NCBI GenBank assembly: GCA_963676725.1
Contig: OY781463.1
Span: 205,421-269,420, forward strand
Direction: 5' to 3'
From: Bacteroidales bacterium
Lineage (GTDB): Bacteria; Bacteroidota; Bacteroidia; Bacteroidales; WRLA01
DNA length: 64,000 bases
Shown here: one piece after another, positions 2,377 to 62,387 of the stretch
How the letters are laid out: the number at the start of each line of letters is the position of its first letter
How positions within the stretch are numbered: the stretch's first letter is position 1
The notes under the pieces: model-generated
Databases searched by the model: none
What the model was told of the DNA's origin: nothing
What the model saw: the letters and a program-made list of their open reading frames with translations, nothing else
Made by a program: the position numbers and the translations under genes

Positions 2377-5037
2377 CTATTTCATACTAGCTATTTGTTC
2401 TTCCAATATTCTGATTCTCTCAATGGCATCGGCTTGTTTTTTGCGTTCCATTTCCACTACTTTTTCTGGGGCATTGTTCACAAAACGTTCGTTGCTGAGC
2501 TTTTTTTCCACCGATTTTATAAATCCTCGGGTGTATTTCAGCTCTTCATTGAGTTTTTCAAGTTCAGCAGCAAGATCAACTTTATCGCCTAATGGCACGA
2601 AAAATTCCGTAGCACCAACAACAAAAGTTCCGGCAGCAGCAGGTTTTTCGTCTGTATAGCGGAGCTCCTCAATATTGCAAAGCTTTATCAGCATATCGTC
2701 AAAATAGGTGTCGGCAGTTTCGTTTTGGTTTTTTCGGATATGCAGCTCAATGGGTTCTTTATTGGCGATATTTTTTTGTGCCCTGATATTCCGCACGCCA
2801 ATAATCACCTCACGAACTACTTCGAAATTGTCGAGAAGTGCTTTGTTTATGTCATTGGCTTTTGGCATTTCTGCAATCATAATACTTTCGTCATCATTGC
2901 GCTCGGCAAGCAAATGCCAGATTTCTTCGGTAATAAACGGCATAAACGGATGAAGTACTTTCATCAATTTTTCAAAGAAAACAATGGTATGCTTGAGGGT
3001 TTCCGGATCGATACCGCTTCCGTAGGGAGGTTTAATCATCTCTAAATACCAAGAGCAAAATTCATCCCAAATGAGTTTATAAACACCCATTAATGCATCG
3101 CTCATGCGGTATTTTTCGTATTGGCCTTCGATGTCACTGATGGATTGATCGAGTTTGTTTCCGAACCATTCTACTGCAGATTTTGCATATTGTGGCATTT
3201 CTGCATCTTCTTCAATCTTCCAGCCTTTTACCAGCCTAAGGGCATTCCAGATTTTATTGCTGAAATTCCGTCCTTGTTCGCAAAGGCTTTCATCAAAGGG
3301 AAGGTCGTTTCCGGCAGGGGAGGTGAGGAGCATTCCAACACGCACACCATCTGCACCATATTGTTCCATTAATTTTATCGGATCGGGGCTATTGCCAAGT
3401 GATTTCGACATTTTGCGCCCCAGCTTATCGCGTACAATTCCGGTAAGGTATACGTTTTTAAATGGAATTTCTTTGCGGTATTCCAATCCCGCCATTATCA
3501 TTCGAGCCACCCAGAAAAACAGGATTTCAGGGGCTGTTACCAAATCATTGGTGGGGTAATAATAGTTTATTTCTTCATTATCAGGATGACGAATGCCATC
3601 AAAAACGCTTATGGGCCATAACCACGATGAAAACCATGTGTCGAGTACGTCATCGTCTTGTTTCAGATCCGCTTCCTGCAATTCGGGACGATTGAATTCG
3701 GTACGGGCTTTTTGCAGCGCTTCTTCAATTGATTTTGCAACCACCATATCGCCCTCGGGCAAATAATAAACCGGAATGCGCTGTCCCCACCACAATTGGC
3801 GCGAAATACACCAATCGCGCACATTTTCCATCCAATGGCGATAAATATTTTTGAATTTTGGTGGATGGAACTGCACAGTATCATTCATAACGACATCCAG
3901 CGCAGGCTTTGCCATTTCTTCCATTTTCAGGAACCATTGCATCGAAAGCTTGGGCTCAATTACGGCATCGGTACGCTCCGAAAAGCCAACCTTATTGGTA
4001 TAATCTTCTACTTTTACAAGATAGCCTTGTTCTTTCAGGTCTTTGGAAATCTCTTCACGTACATCGAAACGGTCTTTGCCAATGTACAATCCGGCTGCCT
4101 CGCTTAAAGTGCCATCATTATTGAAAATATCGATGCTTTGGAGCTTATGCTTAAAGCCAATTTCATAATCGTTGATGTCGTGGGCAGGGGTGATTTTCAG
4201 GCAGCCTGTACCAAATTCCCTATCCACATATTCATCGAGGATAATGGGAACGCTGCGGTTGATCAATGGAACAATTACTCGTTTTCCGTGCAAATTTGTA
4301 TAGCGCTCATCTTCCGGATGGATGCAAACCGCAGTATCACCCAGAATTGTTTCCGGACGGGTTGTGGCGATTGTAACCCATTCGTCTTTTGTGCCTTCCA
4401 CCTGATAGCGCAGATAATATAATTTTGATTGCAGTTCGCGGTGGATTACTTCTTCGTCGGAAAGGGCAGTAAGAGCCGAAGGGTCCCAGTTGACCATGCG
4501 TACTCCACGGTAGATTAATCCTTTTTGATAAAGATTTATAAATGTGTCAATTACTGAGTCGTAGAGTGCTTCATCCATGGTAAAGCGTGTGCGGTCCCAA
4601 TCGCAGGAAGCACCCAATTTCTTAAGTTGCTCGAGTATGATACCGCCATGTTTTTCTTTCCATTCCCAAGCGTGCTCCATAAATGCATCACGGCTAAGGT
4701 TTTTTTTGTCGATGCCGTCTTGTTTCAGCTTGTTTACTACTTTGGCTTCTGTGGCAATGGAAGCATGATCTGTACCGGGAACCCAAAGGGCATTAAATCC
4801 CATCATGCGGGCACGTCGTACTAAAATATCCTGAATTGTATTGTTGAGCATATGGCCCATATGCAGCACACCAGTTACGTTTGGTGGCGGAATAACCACT
4901 GTATAAGCCGGGCGCTCATCGGGCTGTGATTTAAAATATCCTTTCTTCATCCAGTGGGCGTACCACTTGTCCTCGGTCTGTCCGGGAGTGTATTTGGGAG
5001 CAATATCCATGTGTGCATTTTTTTTAATCGCCTGCAA
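2377..5037 (-). CDS. valS: Valine--tRNA ligase (class I aaRS)
   Basis: HIGH motif (VLHMGHMLN), KMSKS motif (RKMSKSLGN), an editing-domain-sized insertion and a C-terminal coiled coil. The true start may be the second ATG at 5010 ([17 protein letters not shown]). Confidence 0.97.
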
Positions 5038-5158
5038 AAATAGAAACTTATTGGGATAAAGCCTTTAATGATGGGCTACTAAATTTTTTGTCTTGAGGGA
5101 TAGCCTGAAAAAATGCCCCACAATTTGTAAAACAGAGAAGCCTGGCATGATGGATCGC

Positions 5159-5431
5159 ACGAATTTGAGCAAATTAGAGGCGATGGGGAAGAAATAATCA
5201 CGGATCGCATGGAAATAGGTGCGAATCGCAAAGAAACTGCATCTGATCGTAAAGAAATTAAGGCGATCTGCATGGAAATGACCACGGATCGCATGGAAAT
5301 TGACGCGGATCACAAAGAAATGACCACGGATCGTAAAGAAATTGCCTCGGAGCGCTTAAATATTGCAGCGGATTGCATAGAAACGCACAGGGAACGAAAG
5401 GAAATAAGAACGGACTGCATAGAAATACCTA
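5159..5431. repeat. Tandem array of about 13 degenerate 21-nt units (consensus CGGATCGCAWRGAAATnnnnn)
   Basis: Eleven units are exactly in phase at 5201, 5222, 5243, 5264, 5285, 5306, 5327, 5348, 5369, 5390 and 5411. Two weaker units lie upstream (5159, 5180). Seven GATC sites fall between 5153 and 5332. Confidence 0.9.
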
Positions 5432-25837: not shown

Positions 25838-26584
25838 CTACTTGGCTTGAATTGCTATTTTGATCCCTTCGATTGCGGACATCACAGGAGCTCCAACTAA
25901 AGAGCCGACAATGCCTCCAAAAAATGCTCCGCCAACAGCTCCTTTTGCATCTTCAAACAATATATCCCAAAATCTTGGATCAACATCTGCATAAGCTGAT
26001 TTTGTGCTATTTGCTAGTAATAATCTCCAGTCATTTAAGTTTTCGTGCCAATAAATATATGAATTTCTTGCAACACTACACACTGCTCCAATTTCATTAG
26101 AATAATTAGTTTTAGATGCATCATCTTCTATTTTACTTAATTTTTCATCAAAAATTTCATACGAACAAATGCCATCATTTTTAATGTCCAATATTCTTAA
26201 TATAAGGGATTTGTACTCTTGATCGTCTATAGTGTTTATAAGTGAGTCAATGTTTAATGTGGTCGTGCCAACCTGTAAAGCATTATAAATACTGTCAATG
26301 AAGTTAGGTTGAATATTATATTGTTCAATTAGAAATAATCGGCTATTTACTATTGCGCAGTTAATATTTGATGAAGTTGCTGATGCAGATAATTGTTCTA
26401 ACGCAGTATATGTATTAGCCAAAGAAGCATTATGAGCAGAGCCTACAATAGTTGAGGTGATGCTTGTGACTTCTTTAAAGTTTAGTTGTTCATTATCAGG
26501 AGTGTATTCTTCTTTCGTGCAGCTACTTAATGAAACTGAAAATGCAGTTAAAATTAAAAGTATGATTTTAATAAATAATTTCAT
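25838..26584 (-). CDS. Lipoprotein with C-terminal glycine-zipper segment (248 aa)
   Basis: Lipobox signal peptide (MKLFIKIILLILTAFSVSLSS-C), a helical-looking body, and a C-terminal GAVGGAFFGGIVGSLVGAPVMSAIEG segment. Confidence 0.65.
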   Translation of the reverse strand: MKLFIKIILLILTAFSVSLSSCTKEEYTPDNEQLNFKEVTSITSTIVGSAHNASLANTYTALEQLSASATSSNINCAIVNSRLFLIEQYNIQPNFIDSIYNALQVGTTTLNIDSLINTIDDQEYKSLILRILDIKNDGICSYEIFDEKLSKIEDDASKTNYSNEIGAVCSVARNSYIYWHENLNDWRLLLANSTKSAYADVDPRFWDILFEDAKGAVGGAFFGGIVGSLVGAPVMSAIEGIKIAIQAK

Positions 26585-27066
26585 GATTGTTAAAATTGAA
26601 TTATTTAAATTTCGAAAAATAGAATACTAATTTGTGAGCATTCCAATAACGAATTCTTAAAAATATCAAGAGATTGAATTTTAATTTATTTCTGCTGTTA
26701 ATTTATACCTCCATTCTTTATTTATTATAAATTTATTGATTTCCGGAAATACTATTTAACAATATTGTATTTGCAAATGTATATATTGTTATTATAATAT
26801 CCAAGAAATTGTGTATTTTTTTTTTTTTGGTGTATTTTGTGTATTTTTGTTAGTAAGTCCTGAAAGTCAATAGATAAGATTTTTTAATTATTGTGATTGT
26901 GATTGTTATTGAAGCTAATTTGAGTGCGTAGGTTTACTTTTGTATTGTTAACCGTGATAATAATTAGTTAGTATTGTAATTTGCAATGTTAGTATGAATT
27001 TATTAATATATAGCACTGTATGTATATGATTCAGATCAAAAACCTGTCAGGATTAAAAAGAACCGA

Positions 27067-30652: not shown

Positions 30653-30683
30653 TTTGGTTGTTTCGAATAAATAACTACTTTTG
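30653..30683 (+). promoter_or_regulatory. rRNA operon promoter module P1
   Basis: TTTG(30653-30656)-N19-TACTTTTG(30676-30683) matches the Bacteroides-type -33/-7 consensus TTTG/TAnnTTTG. It is followed by the conserved CACCCCCGTTT box. Confidence 0.7.
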
Positions 30684-30791
30684 CACCCCCGTTTGATACG
30701 GGCATAAGTTCATGTTTTTGATGGCGCGTTTAGAGCGGTTTTTTCATTTTTTAGGGCTGAGCGATTGGTTCAAAAAAAACTTCAAAAAACA

Positions 30792-30822
30792 TTTGGTTGT
30801 TTAAAAAAAACGACTACTTTTG
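30792..30822 (+). promoter_or_regulatory. rRNA operon promoter module P2
   Basis: TTTG(30792-30795)-N19-TACTTTTG(30815-30822), followed by CACCCCCGTTT. The upstream CAAAAAACATTTGG is identical to that of P1. Confidence 0.7.
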
Positions 30823-30927
30823 CACCCCCGTTTCGATGGGACAACGTACAGGAGGTTTAGTTTAACTAGGCGATGATTTTTGGGATTTTCCTTCACGAGA
30901 GAGGGTTTAAAAAAAAATCAAAAAACA

Positions 30928-30958
30928 TTTGGACGTAACGAAAAAGCGAGTATCTTTG
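30928..30958 (+). promoter_or_regulatory. rRNA operon promoter module P3
   Basis: TTTG(30928-30931)-N19-TATCTTTG(30951-30958), followed by CACCCCCGTTT. It lies about 140 nt upstream of the mature 16S 5' end. Confidence 0.7.
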
Positions 30959-54372: not shown

Positions 54373-54388
54373 AAGATCTGTTTTTAAT

Positions 54389-54424
54389 AAAAAAAGGGCG
54401 TCGAATATTCGACGCCCTTTTTTT
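54389..54424. terminator. Bidirectional rho-independent terminator
   Basis: A7, then a perfect 10-bp stem GGGCGTCGAA/TTCGACGCCC (54396-54417), then T7. It lies between convergent stops at 54372 and 54452. Confidence 0.85.
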
Positions 54425-54451
54425 ATTGTAAGGAAATATTTTTGATAAACC

Positions 54452-56956: not shown

Positions 56957-57019
56957 AGTAATTTTGTTTTGTTTCTTTTTTTTATATTTGCCCCTACAGT
57001 AATACAAAACATAACAGAT

Positions 57020-59386
57020 ATGAACCAAGGGTCATTGAAACAAAGCCTGTTTCTTGTAAATTTAGCCATTAATGCCGGTATAATTTTGCTGTCATTGAAT
57101 TTATCGGCACAGCAAATCCATTGGGCCAATCCTTTGCCCACCGGGAATGAGTATTATGATATTGATTTTTTTGATGGGCAACATGGCTTGATGTGTGGTG
57201 AGTACGGAACAATTTGTTCTACCAAAGATGGAGGAAATAATTGGGAAATTTGTTTTGGCCCGACAGGTTCTGATCCTTTTACTCAAATATGCATTCTGGA
57301 TAGTACAGGTAAAGCTCTGCTGCGATTGGCGAACAGTGAGATTATTGCAACAGATAATTATGGCGAGGTATGGAGTAAGGTATATAAAGCCCCTGACAGC
57401 CTTGCCATTCATAAAATGCAGATGTTGAATGAAAATGAGGGCTTTGCCATTGCACGGAGTACAAATACCGGCAGGTATAAACTCCTGGCAACGCACTCTT
57501 CGGCTTCAGAATGGGAAATTGTACAGGATAGCCTTTTTATCGAAGAAGGTTTCTGGGAGGTTTTTGAACTTACAGATATTGCCTTTATGGATTCGCAAAA
57601 TGGAATGATCATCCTTACAAAAGATGATGGGGATGGGTATTGTTATGCCTTTTTGTACAAAACAACAGATGGAGGAAAAAGCTTTTCACAGATAGATTAC
57701 CCGGGACATTATGATGATGTTGATTTTCAGCAGCTATCTTATTTGAAGGATAACACTTTTATTGTCTATATTTATTTATCAAGAGATAAAGGGGGAAAGA
57801 ATTTAGGCCAAGCTACACAAAAAAACATGCCCAATGATTGCAAAATTGCCAAAACTAACGATTTTGGAGAAAATTGGCATGAGGTTTATCATGATCTTGC
57901 AACTTTTAAAAACCCTTCTTTCAAAACAAACAGGGATTCAATAATTTATTTATTTGGGGGAAGTTTTAATTCTGAGGAGGGGAACTACTGTCCGCATGTA
58001 ATGGCTTCTTCAGATGCAGGCGAAAGCTGGTTTTGGCCAGTTGCAGAGACCCAATTATACTATTCAGCTTATAAATACCCAACGGTAAACAGTTTGGGTA
58101 TAATTGATAAAATTTCGGCTATCATCAGTCTCTCAAGTACATGGCGTCCAAAGCCGCTAAGCACATTTATGAAGACAAATGACATTGAGCACTGGGATGT
58201 ATTTCCCGATGATCAATATAATGGCTTTTATGGCATGGCCATTCTGGAAAATCGGATACTTCTAGGTGCTGGCACACATATTGTCAGCACCTCAAAGAAA
58301 TCGAACAAATGGAATAAAGACTATGATGCCGGCGAAGAATTAAAGCTTGGTGATCAATACCTTGAACAAAGCATCTGTTGGTATGGAGGTTCCTCAAACG
58401 AAGAGTTTATCGTTTTTTCTGATAGTGACGGAAATAATTGGCAAAAGGTAGTGTTCCCCAATAATTTCTATGCCGATGAAATAGACTATGGAACAGACAA
58501 GCAATTGTTTTTACTTAGAGATAATGATTATTCTCAGGAATCTTTATTAATGTTATATGATTTTGACAAGCCCGAGCAAGGCTTTCTTACTTTAAATCTA
58601 CCTGAAAATATGCTCAAGCCTACAGGAATTGAGGCCAACGAACAAGCAGTTTTTCTTTTCGGTGACAATTTAGAAGAAATAGGGTATTTTCATTCAAATG
58701 ATTTGGGGTTGAGCTGGAATTTTATCAATTTGGAATTGCCACGAGTGATTTCAAAAGGATTCCTGATGTCGGACAGCCTCATTTTTGTAAGCCAGAATGC
58801 GGAACAAATGCCTTCTGAATTATGGTCAGTAAATCCACGGGCACAGCAATTGGGTGAGTTATTTTTTAGCGGACAGGAATCCGGTGAAATTATTGATGTC
58901 AAAATGGATGCAAACCAAAGAATATGGATACTGGAGTCCAATAGCTTAAACTGTATTATTTATCATCAGCTATGGGATGATAGCTGGGAAATATTCGGGC
59001 CTTTCCCAGGATTAAGCGGTTTAAAAATGGATTTTGACGGCCAACATCTCTGGGCTTATGGCCCTTCAGGTCGCCTCTTATACCTCGGCGACGGCCTGCC
59101 CGTAGGCATCCAGCCCATCCCAACCCATGATAAACAACAAGCTTTCTCAATAGAAGGCAACCCCTTTTCCAACAGCCTGCAAATCAGCATAAACCTGGAA
59201 TTTCAGGGAGAAGCCATGCTCTTGCTTACCGATATGAACGGAAAGCTCGTCCGTCAAAGCAAAATCATGCTGCATGGCCGGGCAAGCCGTTTCCTGATCC
59301 AAACGCATGATTTGACTCCGGGGGCTTATGTGTGTAGTTTGGTGGCTGGAACGGAACGCTTTAATGAAAAGGTCGTGAAAAAGTAA
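57020..59386 (+). CDS. T9SS-secreted BNR/sortilin-like beta-propeller repeat protein
   Basis: ATG at 57020 gives a signal peptide (LAINAGIILLSLNLSAQ). There are six S/T-x-D-x-G-x-x-W/F motifs (TKDGGNNW, TTDGGKSF, TNDFGENW, SSDAGESW, SDSDGNNW, SNDLGLSW). C-terminal CTD: EGNPFSN...GAYVCSLV. Confidence 0.8.
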   Translation: MNQGSLKQSLFLVNLAINAGIILLSLNLSAQQIHWANPLPTGNEYYDIDFFDGQHGLMCGEYGTICSTKDGGNNWEICFGPTGSDPFTQICILDSTGKALLRLANSEIIATDNYGEVWSKVYKAPDSLAIHKMQMLNENEGFAIARSTNTGRYKLLATHSSASEWEIVQDSLFIEEGFWEVFELTDIAFMDSQNGMIILTKDDGDGYCYAFLYKTTDGGKSFSQIDYPGHYDDVDFQQLSYLKDNTFIVYIYLSRDKGGKNLGQATQKNMPNDCKIAKTNDFGENWHEVYHDLATFKNPSFKTNRDSIIYLFGGSFNSEEGNYCPHVMASSDAGESWFWPVAETQLYYSAYKYPTVNSLGIIDKISAIISLSSTWRPKPLSTFMKTNDIEHWDVFPDDQYNGFYGMAILENRILLGAGTHIVSTSKKSNKWNKDYDAGEELKLGDQYLEQSICWYGGSSNEEFIVFSDSDGNNWQKVVFPNNFYADEIDYGTDKQLFLLRDNDYSQESLLMLYDFDKPEQGFLTLNLPENMLKPTGIEANEQAVFLFGDNLEEIGYFHSNDLGLSWNFINLELPRVISKGFLMSDSLIFVSQNAEQMPSELWSVNPRAQQLGELFFSGQESGEIIDVKMDANQRIWILESNSLNCIIYHQLWDDSWEIFGPFPGLSGLKMDFDGQHLWAYGPSGRLLYLGDGLPVGIQPIPTHDKQQAFSIEGNPFSNSLQISINLEFQGEAMLLLTDMNGKLVRQSKIMLHGRASRFLIQTHDLTPGAYVCSLVAGTERFNEKVVKK

Positions 59387-59415
59387 GTTCTGCTGTATTG
59401 TAATGCTAAAAATGG

Positions 59416-59482
59416 TCTCACGCAAAGACGCCAGGCCGCAAAGAACTATCAGCCCTTGGCGACTTTGCGACTTTGCGTGAGA
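59416..59482. repeat. Inverted repeat / hairpin at the head of the downstream array
   Basis: TCTCACGCAAAG (59416-59427) is the perfect reverse complement of CTTTGCGTGAGA (59471-59482). It begins 30 nt after the stop codon at 59386. Confidence 0.8.
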
Positions 59483-60325
59483 AAAATAACCAACCATGTA
59501 AGCCAACATCATCCCCTCTTAGCGTCTTTGCGTGAGAAAAGAGCATACTCATTCAATCCAGAACACAAAAGTTTTATGCTAAGTCTCTAAAATCCAAAGA
59601 ACAAACAAACTTAGCGTCTTTGCGAGAAAACATCTTCATCCACCAAACATCCTCTTTTGCGTCTTAGCGTCTTTGCGTGAGCCACACTCCCACAGTCATA
59701 GTCCTAAGCGCCTTAACGAGAAAACATCTTCGTCAACCAAACACTCCCACATCATCCTCCTTAGTGTCTTAGCGCCTTTGCGGGAGAAAAATTCATCAAC
59801 CAAACCATCCCCAACAAAGCTTTGCGTCTTAGCTCCTTAACGAGAAAACATCTTCATCCACCGAACAGTCCCTCCTTAGTGTCTTAGCGCCTTTGCGGGA
59901 GAAAAATTCATCAACCAAACCATCCCCAACAAAGCTTTGCGTCTTAGCGCCTTTGCGAGAAAACATCTTCGTCAACCAAACACTCCCACATCATCCTCCT
60001 TAGCGTCTTAGCGCCTTTGCGTGAGAAAAATTCATCAACCAAACCATCCCCAACAAAGCTTTGCGTCTTAGCTCCTTAACGGGAAAACATCTTCATCAAC
60101 CAAACACTCCCTCCTTAGCGTCTTTGCGACTTTGCGTGAGCCACACTCCCACATCATCCTCCTTAGCGTCTTAGCGCCTTTGCGTGAGAAAAATTCATCA
60201 ACCAAACCATCACCAACAAAGCTTTGCGTCTTAGCGCCTTAACGGGAAAGCATCTTCATCAACCAAACACTCCCTCCTTAGCGTCTTTGCGCCTTAACGA
60301 GAAAACACTCCCACACTCATAACCC
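59458..60325 (+). repeat. Composite non-coding tandem array built on the core TTAGCGYCTTWRCG(T)GAGAAAA (at least 18 same-orientation cores)
   Basis: A 60-nt unit A occurs at 59769, 59884, 60008 and 60171, with 0-2 mismatches between copies. A 47-56-nt unit B occurs at 59705, 59829, 59944, 60068 and 60231. An 8-nt linker TTAGYGTC joins them. Superunit spacings are 115, 124 and 163 nt. No ORF of 60 aa or more lies on either strand between 59513 and 60362. Confidence 0.9.
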
Positions 60326-60482
60326 ACATCTCCGTCGCAAGAAAAATACCCTATTCATTTCATTACTGTTTTAAACTTGCCATTACTTCCCAAAGAAAAC
60401 AATAAAGCGTCATTTTGACAGACTTTTTCTGCTGGCATAAGCTTTGATATTCGCCACACAGAAAACAACAAAATTTTATACT

Positions 60483-62387
60483 ATGCAAAAAGGAAAGATT
60501 AACGTACAAACCGAGAACATTTTTCCAATTATTAAAAAATTCCTCTATTCCGATCATGAGATCTTTTTGAGGGAATTGGTTTCAAATGCTGTGGATGCTA
60601 CTCAAAAGCTTAAAGCTCTTGCATCTATGGGAAAAGTAAAAGGTGATCTTGGCGATACAAGCATTGAGGTGATCCTTGATGATAAAAAGAAAACCCTGAC
60701 TGTACGCGACAGAGGCATCGGAATGACTGCCGAAGAAGTTGACCGTTTTATCAATCAGATCGCTTTTAGCAGCGCCGAAGAATTCGTGAAAGAGTTTAAA
60801 GGAAAATCTGAAGCAGAATCTGCCAAAATTATCGGCCATTTTGGTCTTGGATTTTATTCCGCTTTTATGGTTTCCGATAAGGTGCAAATCAAAACCCTTT
60901 CGTATAAAGAAGATGCAGTAGCTCAAAAATGGGAATGCGATGGCAGCCCTGATTATACGCTGAAAGAATCAAAAAAGAAAGAACGTGGAACCGATATCGT
61001 GCTGCATATTGCCGATGATTCTAAAGAATTTCTGGAAGAACACCGCATCCTCGACCTGCTAAAGAAATACTGTAAATTCCTGCCCGTTGAAATTAAATTC
61101 GGCAACGAAAAAATTTCCGAAAAGGTTGAAGGCGAAAAGGATAAGGACGGAAATGATGTGTATAAAGAGATTGAAAAAGAACGCATCATCAATAATACCA
61201 AGCCTGCATGGGTGCAAAAACCGGCAGACTTAACCGAAGAGGATTATAAGAATTTCTATAGGGAACTCTATCCCATGAATTTTGAGGAGCCTTTGTTCCA
61301 TATCCACCTGAATGTTGATTATCCTTTTAACCTCACCGGTATCCTTTACTTCCCAAAGGCTAAGAACCGCTTTGAGGTACAAAAAGATAAAATCCAGTTA
61401 TACAGCAATCAGGTGTTTGTTACCGATTCTGTAGAAGGTATTGTTCCTGAGTTTTTGATGTTGCTGCATGGTGTGCTCGATTCACCTGATATCCCATTGA
61501 ATGTATCGCGCTCTTATCTGCAAAGCGATTCTAATGTGAAGAAAATCAGCAACCACATCATGAAAAAGGTGGCTGATAAGCTTGAGGAAATGTATAAAGA
61601 AGATCGCCCCGATTTTGAGAAAAAATGGGATGATATCCGCGTATTTATCCAATATGGTATGATCAGCGAACAAAAATTCTACGATCGTGCCGAGAAGTTC
61701 TGCCTCCTGAAAAACATGGACGGGAAATACTTTAACTTCGAAGAATATAAAGAGCATATCAAAGAGAATCAGACCGATAAGGATAAAAAACTGGTTTATT
61801 TATATGCCACAAATCCGGAAGAGCAATACAGTTATATAGAGGCAGCCAAGCAAAAAGGCTACGATGTGCTGCTGCTCGATGGAATACTCGATAATCATTT
61901 TATCAACCATATGGAAACCAAGCTGGCCGATTCTTCTTTTGTGCGCGTTGATGCTGAAACAGCAGATAAGCTCATTAAAAAAGATGAAGAAATGCCATCG
62001 AAATTAAGCGATGAGGACAAAGAAAAACTCAAGCCTGTTTTCGAAAATAATGTGAATAAGGCTCAGTTTACCGTTATGTTTGAGAATATGTCGGAAAGCG
62101 AACAACCCGTTATTATCACCCGTCCGGAATTTATGCGCCGCATGAAAGATATGCAGGAGCTTGGTGGTGGCGGAATGGGTTTTATGGGAAATATGCCCGA
62201 TATGTACAATCTTGTGGTGAACAGCAATCATCAGGTTGTGGGCGAAATCCTCGCTATGGAAGACGAAGAAAAGAAAGCACAATTAGCGAAACAACTGACA
62301 GATCTCGCTTTATTGTCACAGAATATGCTGAAAGGCGAAAGCCTGGATAAATTCCTGAAAAGGAGTGTAGAATTAATTGGAAAGTAA
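60483..62387 (+). CDS. htpG: Molecular chaperone HtpG (Hsp90)
   Basis: Start at ATG 60483 (MQKGKINVQTENIFPIIKKFLYSDHEIFLRELVSNAVDA). Motifs GHFGLGFYSAFMV and the LNVSRSYLQ-type middle-domain motif are present. Confidence 0.97.
   Translation: MQKGKINVQTENIFPIIKKFLYSDHEIFLRELVSNAVDATQKLKALASMGKVKGDLGDTSIEVILDDKKKTLTVRDRGIGMTAEEVDRFINQIAFSSAEEFVKEFKGKSEAESAKIIGHFGLGFYSAFMVSDKVQIKTLSYKEDAVAQKWECDGSPDYTLKESKKKERGTDIVLHIADDSKEFLEEHRILDLLKKYCKFLPVEIKFGNEKISEKVEGEKDKDGNDVYKEIEKERIINNTKPAWVQKPADLTEEDYKNFYRELYPMNFEEPLFHIHLNVDYPFNLTGILYFPKAKNRFEVQKDKIQLYSNQVFVTDSVEGIVPEFLMLLHGVLDSPDIPLNVSRSYLQSDSNVKKISNHIMKKVADKLEEMYKEDRPDFEKKWDDIRVFIQYGMISEQKFYDRAEKFCLLKNMDGKYFNFEEYKEHIKENQTDKDKKLVYLYATNPEEQYSYIEAAKQKGYDVLLLDGILDNHFINHMETKLADSSFVRVDAETADKLIKKDEEMPSKLSDEDKEKLKPVFENNVNKAQFTVMFENMSESEQPVIITRPEFMRRMKDMQELGGGGMGFMGNMPDMYNLVVNSNHQVVGEILAMEDEEKKAQLAKQLTDLALLSQNMLKGESLDKFLKRSVELIGK

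Follow-up and report, generated by a model that had tools for sequence, protein, structure and literature searches.

We find that the intergenic region upstream of htpG in the stretch of Bacteroidales DNA analysed here (64,000 nt of contig OY781463.1; hereafter the window) is a tandem array built from one arm of an inverted-repeat frame that recurs in many phyla. The region extends over 1096 nt, from the stop codon of the upstream gene at 59386 to the htpG ATG at 60483, and contains one hairpin followed by 14 further arms in the same orientation. Our preferred explanation, which we hold at a probability of roughly 60%, is that the region is a locally amplified derivative, free of any open reading frame (ORF), of a widespread inverted-repeat cassette frame, i.e., a selfish-DNA remnant that grows and shrinks in place and is no dedicated regulator of htpG. 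The locus itself is repeat-derived, strain-variable intergenic DNA, which is a known kind; the frame family is the part worth following.

An earlier note on this DNA (the original prediction) had described a repeat block upstream of htpG, and Tandem Repeats Finder together with our core counts confirms it as a real tandem array, with nested periods of 60, 115, 124, 163 and 239 nt over 59707-60307. A 14-nt core, TTAGCGYCTTWRCG, is matched 22 times at ≤1 mismatch, always on the + strand and within 59519-60299, compared to 0.07 matches in shuffled sequences. The true building block is an octamer, CTTWGCGN, with an underlying period of 8 nt; the two-octamer pattern has 30 matches versus 1.16 expected, 29 of them at the htpG-upstream locus. 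We define an arm as two to three of these octamers closed by (N)GAGAAAA. Because many of the 22 core matches overlap in 8-nt register, they resolve into 15 distinct arms, one in the hairpin and 14 in the array; the predicted count of at least 18 same-orientation core copies is therefore borne out in orientation and repetition but not in the number of separate elements. The arms are 21-32 nt long and are followed by spacers of 21-35 nt that fall into a few recurrent types (a, b, B and c, all sharing the sequence CATCAACCAAAC), with one unique exception of 69 nt. The 8-nt TTAGYGTC "linkers" of the original prediction are not separate parts; they are the first octamer of three-octamer arms.

All components lie on the + strand. 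The left arm of the frame (59416-59443; TCTCA CGCAAAGA CGCCAGGC CGCAAAG) is the only left-type double octamer in the window, and it pairs with right arm 1 (59455-59486; CTTGGCGACTTTGCGACTTTGCGTGAGAAAAA) across an 11-nt loop to give an ORF-less hairpin that we refer to as an empty frame. Right arm 2 (59518-59540) consists of two octamers and GAGAAAA and is followed by the unique 69-nt spacer; then come right arm 3 (59610-59630), right arm 4 (59655-59681), which has three octamers and ends GTGAG, and the degenerate right arm 5 (59704-59724; CTAAGCGCCTTAACGAGAAAA). Composite units make up the rest. Unit A, a 32-nt arm joined to a G-free 28-nt spacer (TTCATCAACCAAACCATCCCCAACAAAG), is present in the four 60-nt copies that had been predicted (59760-59819, 59875-59934, 59999-60058 and 60162-60221), although these differ by 0-3 mismatches and not by the 0-2 claimed. 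Copies of unit B are found at 59820-59874, where a 29-nt arm is joined to a spacer CATCTTCATC..CCCTC, at 59935-59998 with a long 35-nt spacer variant, and at 60059-60113 and 60222-60276. A single unit C (60114-60161) combines a 27-nt arm with a CCACACTCCCACATCATCCTC spacer, and the last, 15th right arm closes the array at 60277-60305.

The hairpin suggests what the arms may be derived from. Its two 28-nt halves (59416-59443 and 59455-59482) are 82% complementary, with 12 perfect outer pairs as originally predicted for a hairpin after the upstream gene, and the corresponding RNA folds with -32.5 kcal/mol (z = -4.7 against shuffles). The locus has a single left arm, so that only the first unit is a complete frame. 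In other genomes, the arm motif is the right arm of an inverted-repeat frame of the form 5'-TTTTCTCA(CGCAAAGN)2-3 ... (CTTTGCGN)2-3TGAGAAAA-3'. The right arm comprises 2-3 units of CTTNGCGN closed by (N)GAGAAAA and the left arm is TTTCTCN(CGCNAAGN)2-3, pairing in register with the right; the window arms and the window hairpin, respectively, have this build.

We searched with a 23-nt pattern taken from the arms, CTTWGCGNCTTWGCGNGAGAAAA, for which the information content predicts ~1 chance match in 596 Gb. Among the matches listed, it identifies more than 120 loci in at least 12 phyla, including Acidobacteriota (especially Pyrinomonadaceae), Nostocales (Cyanobacteria), Bacteroidota, Planctomycetota, Chloroflexota, Verrucomicrobiota, Nitrospirota, several proteobacterial classes, viral contigs and others; in the window itself, six arms fit the exact pattern and 15 of 15 fit its relaxed form. 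The complementary left arm (TTTCTCN CGCAAAGN CGCAAAG...) lies ≤120 nt upstream in 35 of 125 listed matches, as in the window hairpin, and 120-1200 nt upstream in 16 of the 125; it lies ≤40 nt downstream, giving a tight right-arm/left-arm hairpin, in 16 as well. For the remaining listed matches, the arm seems to stand alone or its partner is degenerate. In 19 distinct frames, an average of 22.6 of 27 positions form Watson-Crick pairs in register (22/27 for the window hairpin), and the freely variable position beside TCTC/GAGA pairs in 68% of frames versus 25% expected. Since this variable position covaries, arm complementarity itself is maintained. Among the matches, the commonest position of a frame is the spacer that separates two consecutive genes, after the stop codon of the first and with its right arm facing the start of the second, and the window locus is of this kind. 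No Rfam model reaches its gathering threshold in 18 other frame-bearing loci.

The outgrowth of arms into an array is not unique to the window, because a direct right-arm array with a 43-nt period adjoins a gene of the GxxExxY family in L068 (L-numbers label compared contigs or loci from other samples and genomes) and other arm arrays are present in L060, L072 and L114. It is only the arm that is dispersed, not unit A or unit B; the whole composite unit was rejected as a dispersed family when a metagenome scan for the spacer TTCATCAACCAAACMMTCCC returned 10 matches, all in unrelated contexts and without arms. The original suggestion of a dispersed REP-like family (REP, repetitive extragenic palindromic) thus stands as far as dispersal of the core is concerned, but the dispersal is across phyla, and within ~70 kb of the source genome the core occurs only upstream of htpG. 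Our search for a second arm locus in those ~70 kb found none, and no octamer-arm repeats, hairpins or frames were found elsewhere in the 64-kb window. Four arm matches (L150-L153) are in viral contigs from IMG/VR, in which the frames lie between ORFs and end a few nt before the next start codon; with four matches and no particular association, viral contigs were dismissed as the main carrier of arms.

Several of the compared loci carry further short-period repeats. Side-by-side mosaics of different 7-8-nt periodic repeats are found in L046 (4700-5100) and L049 (4380-4720), with repeat types CGCAGAC, CACAGAA, CTGCG, CACGGAT-like, CTACATGT, CATAGAG, CAGCCTT and CATGAAG; several of these are closed by TGAGA like the arms, and the mosaics suggest a larger superfamily of octamer-type arms. 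A (GAAGTCGTT)n run adjoins an arm after a GxxExxY gene in L070 (7210-7345), a Lentisphaeria metagenome-assembled genome, and a (CCCCTTT)n run follows an arm in L072 (4655-4700), from Wenzhouxiangella. The window has a second intergenic array at 5189-5430, made of ~11 degenerate 21-nt units with the core GATCGCAWRGAAAT, which includes the same CGCAAAG heptamer as the arms; it separates the divergently oriented valS (2377-5037, minus strand) and a gene for a large membrane protein, the ORF of which is listed from 5209, probably upstream of its true start.

Some frames enclose genes, and the enclosed genes belong to two families. In a Pfam scan of 90 small ORFs flanking arm matches, PF13366 (PDDEXK_3) is found eight times and PF08872 (KGK) five times, with other families found once or twice. 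The PF13366 group has a PD-(D/E)XK nuclease fold and is named GxxExxY (TIGR04256) by NCBIfam; we know of no assigned function for these proteins. An iterative protein search seeded from L068 identifies nine GxxExxY proteins in arm loci, eight of them touching the motif. Frames of ~410-470 nt enclose GxxExxY genes in 8 loci, and KGK genes are framed in Nostocales; in every case only a few nt separate the left arm from the start codon that follows it, and the stop codon from the right arm. In a Cylindrospermum locus (L016), three KGK genes stand in tandem; every gene has a left arm of its own, and a single right arm closes the series. GxxExxY loci picked by protein similarity, and not by the motif, give the same picture, with both arms present in three of three distinct loci (L139/L140, L145 and L146). 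The family is very large, with at least ~7,900 proteins at E ≤ 1e-10 among 8,000 candidates listed.

The junction between ruvA and sprA shows the frame in occupied and empty states. In L149 this spacer is 19 nt long and has no arms, while in L145 and L147 it is ~480 nt and contains a framed GxxExxY gene; because the junction is empty in the one and occupied in the others, frame and gene together represent an insertion unit. No target-site duplication is recognisable there, the flanks being too diverged. At the same junction, L148 (3100-3330) carries an unrelated 260-nt AT-rich array with a ~22-nt period (aaagtaaaaaNaaaatttacyc). Contigs bearing GxxExxY genes are in many cases very short, and L139 breaks off within the right-arm region, 61 nt past the gene; arms seem often to break short-read assemblies.

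The frame relationship also bears on whether the array is an orphan or degenerate clustered regularly interspaced short palindromic repeats (CRISPR) array, with the 21-32-nt arms as repeats and 21-35-nt spacers between them. The repeat-spacer periodicity of 47-64 nt is indeed CRISPR-like. The repeats, however, vary both in length (21-32 nt) and in sequence, with several types present; the spacers are not unique but fall into four G-free types that recur and resemble one another; the genes called within ~6 kb on either side include no cas genes; and what is repeated is an arm of the inverted-repeat frame that borders genes in other genomes. These observations exclude a CRISPR array.

The length of the array is a strain character. 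In strains with ~100% identical HtpG, the intergenic region is 1096 nt in the window, 947 nt in L001, 1135 nt in L126 and 801 nt in L128, the latter three with ~12, ~16 and ~11 arm units, respectively, in differing orders. These three contigs are 1.1, 2.1 and 1.1 Mb long, come from independent samples and have the same flanks. As four strain variants differ in the array, we conclude that unequal exchange is ongoing, and the recent reshuffling of a recombination-prone spacer anticipated by the original prediction is evident in these four lengths. A sister species, L125 (HtpG 89% identical), has the same hairpin, a smaller array of ~2 x 120 nt and related spacers; the element therefore predates the species split and has turned over since. 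In practical terms, the repeat block is a fast-evolving marker that separates strains with nearly or fully identical HtpG, and one that breaks short-read assemblies. In L125, most of the gene upstream of the hairpin, which encodes a protein with a type IX secretion system (T9SS) sorting domain in the window, is replaced at 4596-5305 by a HEPN plus nucleotidyltransferase (MNT) pair, with its last ~120 nt remaining.

The same comparison excludes an assembly artefact, just as the anatomy excludes a decayed coding repeat (a repetitive-protein pseudogene). An artefact might be suspected since short-read assemblies break in the array or insert Ns, as in contigs L002-L004 and L127, which end inside the array or have N gaps. 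Four contigs of 1-5 Mb from different samples nonetheless contain the array between conserved flanks, so that the collapse which the original prediction had named as a refutation is not seen in the three other long contigs from independent samples. A coding remnant is at odds with periods of 115, 124, 163 and 239 nt, which are not multiples of 3, and with 9-18 stops in all six frames of the array; the longest ORF in the intergenic region is 55 aa by the ORF listing, in agreement with the predicted lack of long ORFs on either strand.

From these data, we propose the following course of events. An empty frame (hairpin 59416-59486) sits in its usual position and orientation between two same-strand genes, where its right arm and a short G-free spacer would have been duplicated to give a direct array of 14 units. 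Higher-order duplications of 115-239 nt would have followed the amplification of the arms, and the array may keep expanding, contracting and homogenising via unequal recombination or slippage between near-identical arms. We infer that the array arose as a selfish or neutral by-product and does not serve as a dedicated regulator. It would then act on htpG indirectly, if at all: transcription of the + strand would give ~0.85 kb of unstructured, C-rich, G-poor RNA with no intrinsic terminator, and Rho may load on this array RNA, so that transcripts reading through from the upstream gene would end ahead of the htpG promoter.

The likely htpG promoter lies outside the array. The last arm is separated from the htpG ATG by 177 nt of unique DNA that is conserved across strains and species, the array ending at 60305, 178 nt before the ATG at 60483. 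The array is therefore not directly upstream of htpG, and the original view that it fills the space of the htpG promoter and 5' untranslated region is not supported, given that unique, conserved DNA with a promoter-like site intervenes. The first part of this DNA is a G-poor stretch on the + strand (60306-60413; 7.4% G) that is ~80% conserved in the sister species except for a 30-nt indel. It is followed by a putative htpG promoter of the Bacteroidota sigma-A type (60414-60446, + strand), near-consensus in sequence, with TTTG at 60414-60417, a gap of 21 nt and AAGCTTTG at 60439-60446. This TTTG-N21-AAGCTTTG match is one position off the TAnnTTTG consensus, begins 108 nt past the last arm and stays at the same place in every strain compared, as well as in L125, the sister species. 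We ruled out an exact TTTG...TAnnTTTG promoter at htpG, where the exact pattern has no match, and a scan of 59200-60600 for the sigma-70 promoter consensus found none. The exact pattern, TTTG-N18-22-TAnnTTTG, is present in three tandem copies upstream of the 16S gene and in one copy upstream of ubiD, from which we conclude that Bacteroidota-type promoters are used in the source organism. Judged by these motifs, the htpG promoter probably lies in the unique DNA between array and gene and not inside the array. The three exact matches before the 16S rRNA gene (31096) lie at 30653-30958, ~137 nt apart, and are likely stacked rRNA promoters.

With the promoter probably outside the array, we consider it quite improbable that the array is a protein-binding platform that tunes htpG transcription, i.e., one in which octamer runs bind a regulator and copy number sets the dosage. 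The 15 same-orientation copies of the motif within 1 kb upstream of a stress gene, the conservation of this position in the sister species, and a preprint suggesting that promoter-near tandem heptamers influence expression in Nostoc (10.1101/2022.06.06.494920) are what one would expect from such a platform. The motif, however, has unrelated genes as neighbours across at least 12 phyla and is associated neither with htpG nor with stress genes, its 8-nt period is unsuited to face-of-helix binding on duplex DNA, the copy number differs freely between near-identical strains, and 108 nt separate the end of the array from the promoter-like site downstream. For the source genome, the analysis dispels a misleading idea: the promoter region of htpG is distinct from the repeat block, for which we see no connection to heat-shock control.

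The array also stands out in composition. Over its 843 nt, the array has 13.8% G and 31.7% C, and the spacers 4.8% G and 39.7% C, so that the G-poverty of the plus strand noted in the original prediction is both real and extreme. The 12 400-nt windows with the most negative GC skew in the whole 64 kb are all inside the array, and the YC density is 0.18 in the array versus 0.10 in the window. When folded, either strand of the array does no better than its shuffled counterparts, and no Rfam model reaches its gathering threshold at the locus, the best sub-threshold match being a miRNA hairpin model with 25 bits compared to the 73 required. With no excess folding on either strand and no Rfam match, a structured form of the small RNAs proposed originally is unlikely. 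A consensus scan of 59200-60600 for intrinsic terminators found none. The hairpin has a T run before its stem and an A run after it, the stem being followed by AAAAAT with no downstream U-tract; with this order of the two runs, the hairpin is not an intrinsic terminator. Frame stems in general have this T run before and A run after on both strands, the reverse of a terminator, a geometry that suggests that frames are built to be transcribed through. Canonical terminators do exist in the source genome, given the perfect palindrome at 54373-54440 upstream of ubiD, which resembles a bidirectional intrinsic terminator (A run, GGGCGTCGAAT/ATTCGACGCCC, T run) and contrasts with the hairpin after the T9SS gene.

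The most concrete functional hypothesis is a selected role for the array as a Rho-dependent terminator or insulator, in which Rho would load on the array RNA and stop read-through from the T9SS gene before it reaches the promoter of a stress gene. The array has the composition of a Rho utilization (rut) site, i.e., at least ~80 nt of C-rich, G-poor, unstructured, untranslated RNA, with its 843 nt and a folding z of +0.2. Such a function would account for the G-poor, C-rich spacers, the high YC density and the concentration of the most negative GC-skew windows in the array, for the lack of excess structure in the array RNA, for a hairpin with no downstream U-tract, and for a G-poverty that also characterises the adjoining unique DNA and has persisted in the sister species. 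We nevertheless regard it as rather unlikely: the evidence is one of composition, other arm arrays, e.g., that of L068, are not G-poor, the G-poverty could be inherited from a single duplicated G-free ancestral spacer, and the array varies in length from 0.35 to 0.95 kb with no visible constraint.

A role at the level of RNA, with the arms as processing sites for RNase III or another enzyme that yield a series of short processed RNAs or stabilise neighbouring mRNAs, is in our judgement very doubtful. Arms do form stems of 27-30 bp with covarying positions, the T-run/stem/A-run geometry would let frames be read through rather than terminate transcription, and frames are found between ORFs of viral contigs and just before start codons. 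There is also a precedent in the ORF-bearing intervening sequences (IVS) of 23S rRNA, which are cut out by RNase III at similar stems. The single left arm at the locus, however, permits at most one stem at a time, and the array itself, whichever strand is considered, shows no structure beyond that of shuffled sequence and has no Rfam match.

Among known systems, the locus and its relatives are closest in logic to REP elements and hairpin-forming REP doublets (REPINs) with their REP-associated tyrosine transposases (RAYTs), to miniature inverted-repeat transposable elements (MITEs) and to ORF-bearing 23S rRNA IVS, and closest in form to the short tandem heptamers of cyanobacteria and Beggiatoa. 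REPs and REPINs are short intergenic repeats that pair into hairpins and occur singly, as inverted pairs or in clusters; REPs are lineage-specific, start with a GTAG-type tetranucleotide and are present in many copies per genome, and the RAYT is an HUH/Y1 (IS200/IS605-like) transposase. REP/REPIN elements and RAYT genes were reportedly treated by Bertels and Rainey in 2011 (PMC3116915). As in these systems, a small nuclease-type gene is flanked by inverted repeats and ORF-less copies outnumber gene-bearing ones. Unlike RAYTs, the framed genes encode GxxExxY (PF13366) proteins of the PD-(D/E)XK fold or KGK (PF08872) proteins and no Y1 transposases, and unlike REPs, the arms are runs of 8-nt units ending TGAGAAAA that are near-identical across phyla, with a single orientation in the window array. 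The window arms begin CTTNGCG or TCTCNCGC rather than with a GTAG-type tetranucleotide, and they occupy one locus in ~70 kb rather than many. The locus thus lacks the defining sequence signature of REPs, and the flanked genes found elsewhere are not those of a Y1 transposase; the locus also lacks the defining features of CRISPR arrays and intrinsic terminators.

The other comparisons are similarly partial. Like MITEs, the window element is an ORF-less unit bounded by inverted repeats and related to a longer gene-bearing unit, which itself shows presence and absence at orthologous sites (ruvA-sprA); unlike MITEs, it has no identified transposase or target-site duplication, its arms are internally periodic, and one arm alone has been amplified in tandem. 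ORF-containing IVS of 23S rRNA are known, e.g., in Coxiella (PMC4990558), and resemble the gene-bearing frames in having a small selfish ORF in the loop of a long terminal-inverted-repeat stem, within a transcribed region and tolerated through processing of the stem. The window locus, in contrast, is intergenic and ORF-less, and no insertion is found in the window 23S gene (2825 nt, full model match). The cyanobacterial short tandemly repeated repetitive sequences (STRRs) are long homogeneous runs of heptamers, while the arms have 2-3 octamers each, are always closed by TGAGAAAA and are organised as inverted pairs or frames. What the arms share with cyanobacterial STRR heptamers and Beggiatoa heptamer repeats (10.1101/2022.06.06.494920) are tandem units of 7-8 nt, an intergenic position near gene starts and a distribution over distant phyla. 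Integron cassette arrays consist of small promoter-less genes in one orientation, each followed by a structured recombination site, and include ORF-less cassettes; the three tandem KGK genes of L016 recall such arrays. Neither an integrase nor attI is seen, however, and attC is itself an imperfect palindrome, whereas the halves of a frame lie on opposite sides of the gene. Like rut regions, the array would give a long untranslated, C-rich, G-poor, unstructured RNA after a gene with no intrinsic terminator, but rut sites have no defined repeat architecture, and the likeness is one of base composition.

Four observations weigh against the array as a neutral remnant of a gene-bearing frame. No further composite unit with G-free spacers turned up elsewhere. 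In the sister species, the array has retained both its position and its scarcity of G, which moreover continues into unique DNA; this hints that the composition is under selection and that "neutral by-product" may be too dismissive. The window contains no GxxExxY or KGK gene, and no GxxExxY homologue was found among its ORFs, so that the window offers no local source element. Finally, only 8 + 5 of the 90 small flanking ORFs are GxxExxY or KGK genes, and most arm matches lie between ordinary genes.

As regards the family as a whole, one 23-nt motif recurs across many phyla as the arms of frames around GxxExxY and KGK genes. We tentatively suggest, as a possibility and not as our expectation, that the arms mark a cross-phylum class of mobile cassettes, each with a small GxxExxY PD-(D/E)XK or KGK-type gene in a tandem-octamer stem loop. 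Such cassettes might enter operon junctions and phage genomes while transcription continues through them, leave behind ORF-less hairpins and arm arrays like that of the window (as REPINs are to RAYTs) and perhaps be the source of the ORF-bearing IVS of rRNA; the arms of a cassette, in hairpin or cruciform form, would be what its nuclease recognises. In our literature searches, we found no paper describing octamer-arm frames around GxxExxY or KGK genes, although an earlier description may exist. If frames are a mobility or processing signal, it becomes testable why GxxExxY-type genes are multi-copy and located at operon junctions, and where the many 7-8-nt periodic intergenic repeats of arm-bearing phyla originate.

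The genes on either side provide context only. The upstream gene (56969-59386, + strand) encodes an 805-aa BNR/sortilin-like protein with a C-terminal T9SS sorting domain (Pfam PSII_BNR, Sortilin-Vps10 and Por_Secre_tail) and is called alike in L001, L126 and L128. The downstream gene, htpG (60483-62387, + strand), has the Pfam domains HSP90 and HATPase_c, and its homologues are named HtpG. Within ~6 kb on either side, the called genes are PQQ_2, AhpC, UbiD, BNR/T9SS, HtpG, LemA, two TPM, AAA_14 and DUF4842. Apart from this locus, the window has an AT-rich region at 25950-26950 with 9-10% G in 200-nt windows and C down to 5%, which contains tandem repeats at 26547-26602, 26811-26847 and 26890-26911.

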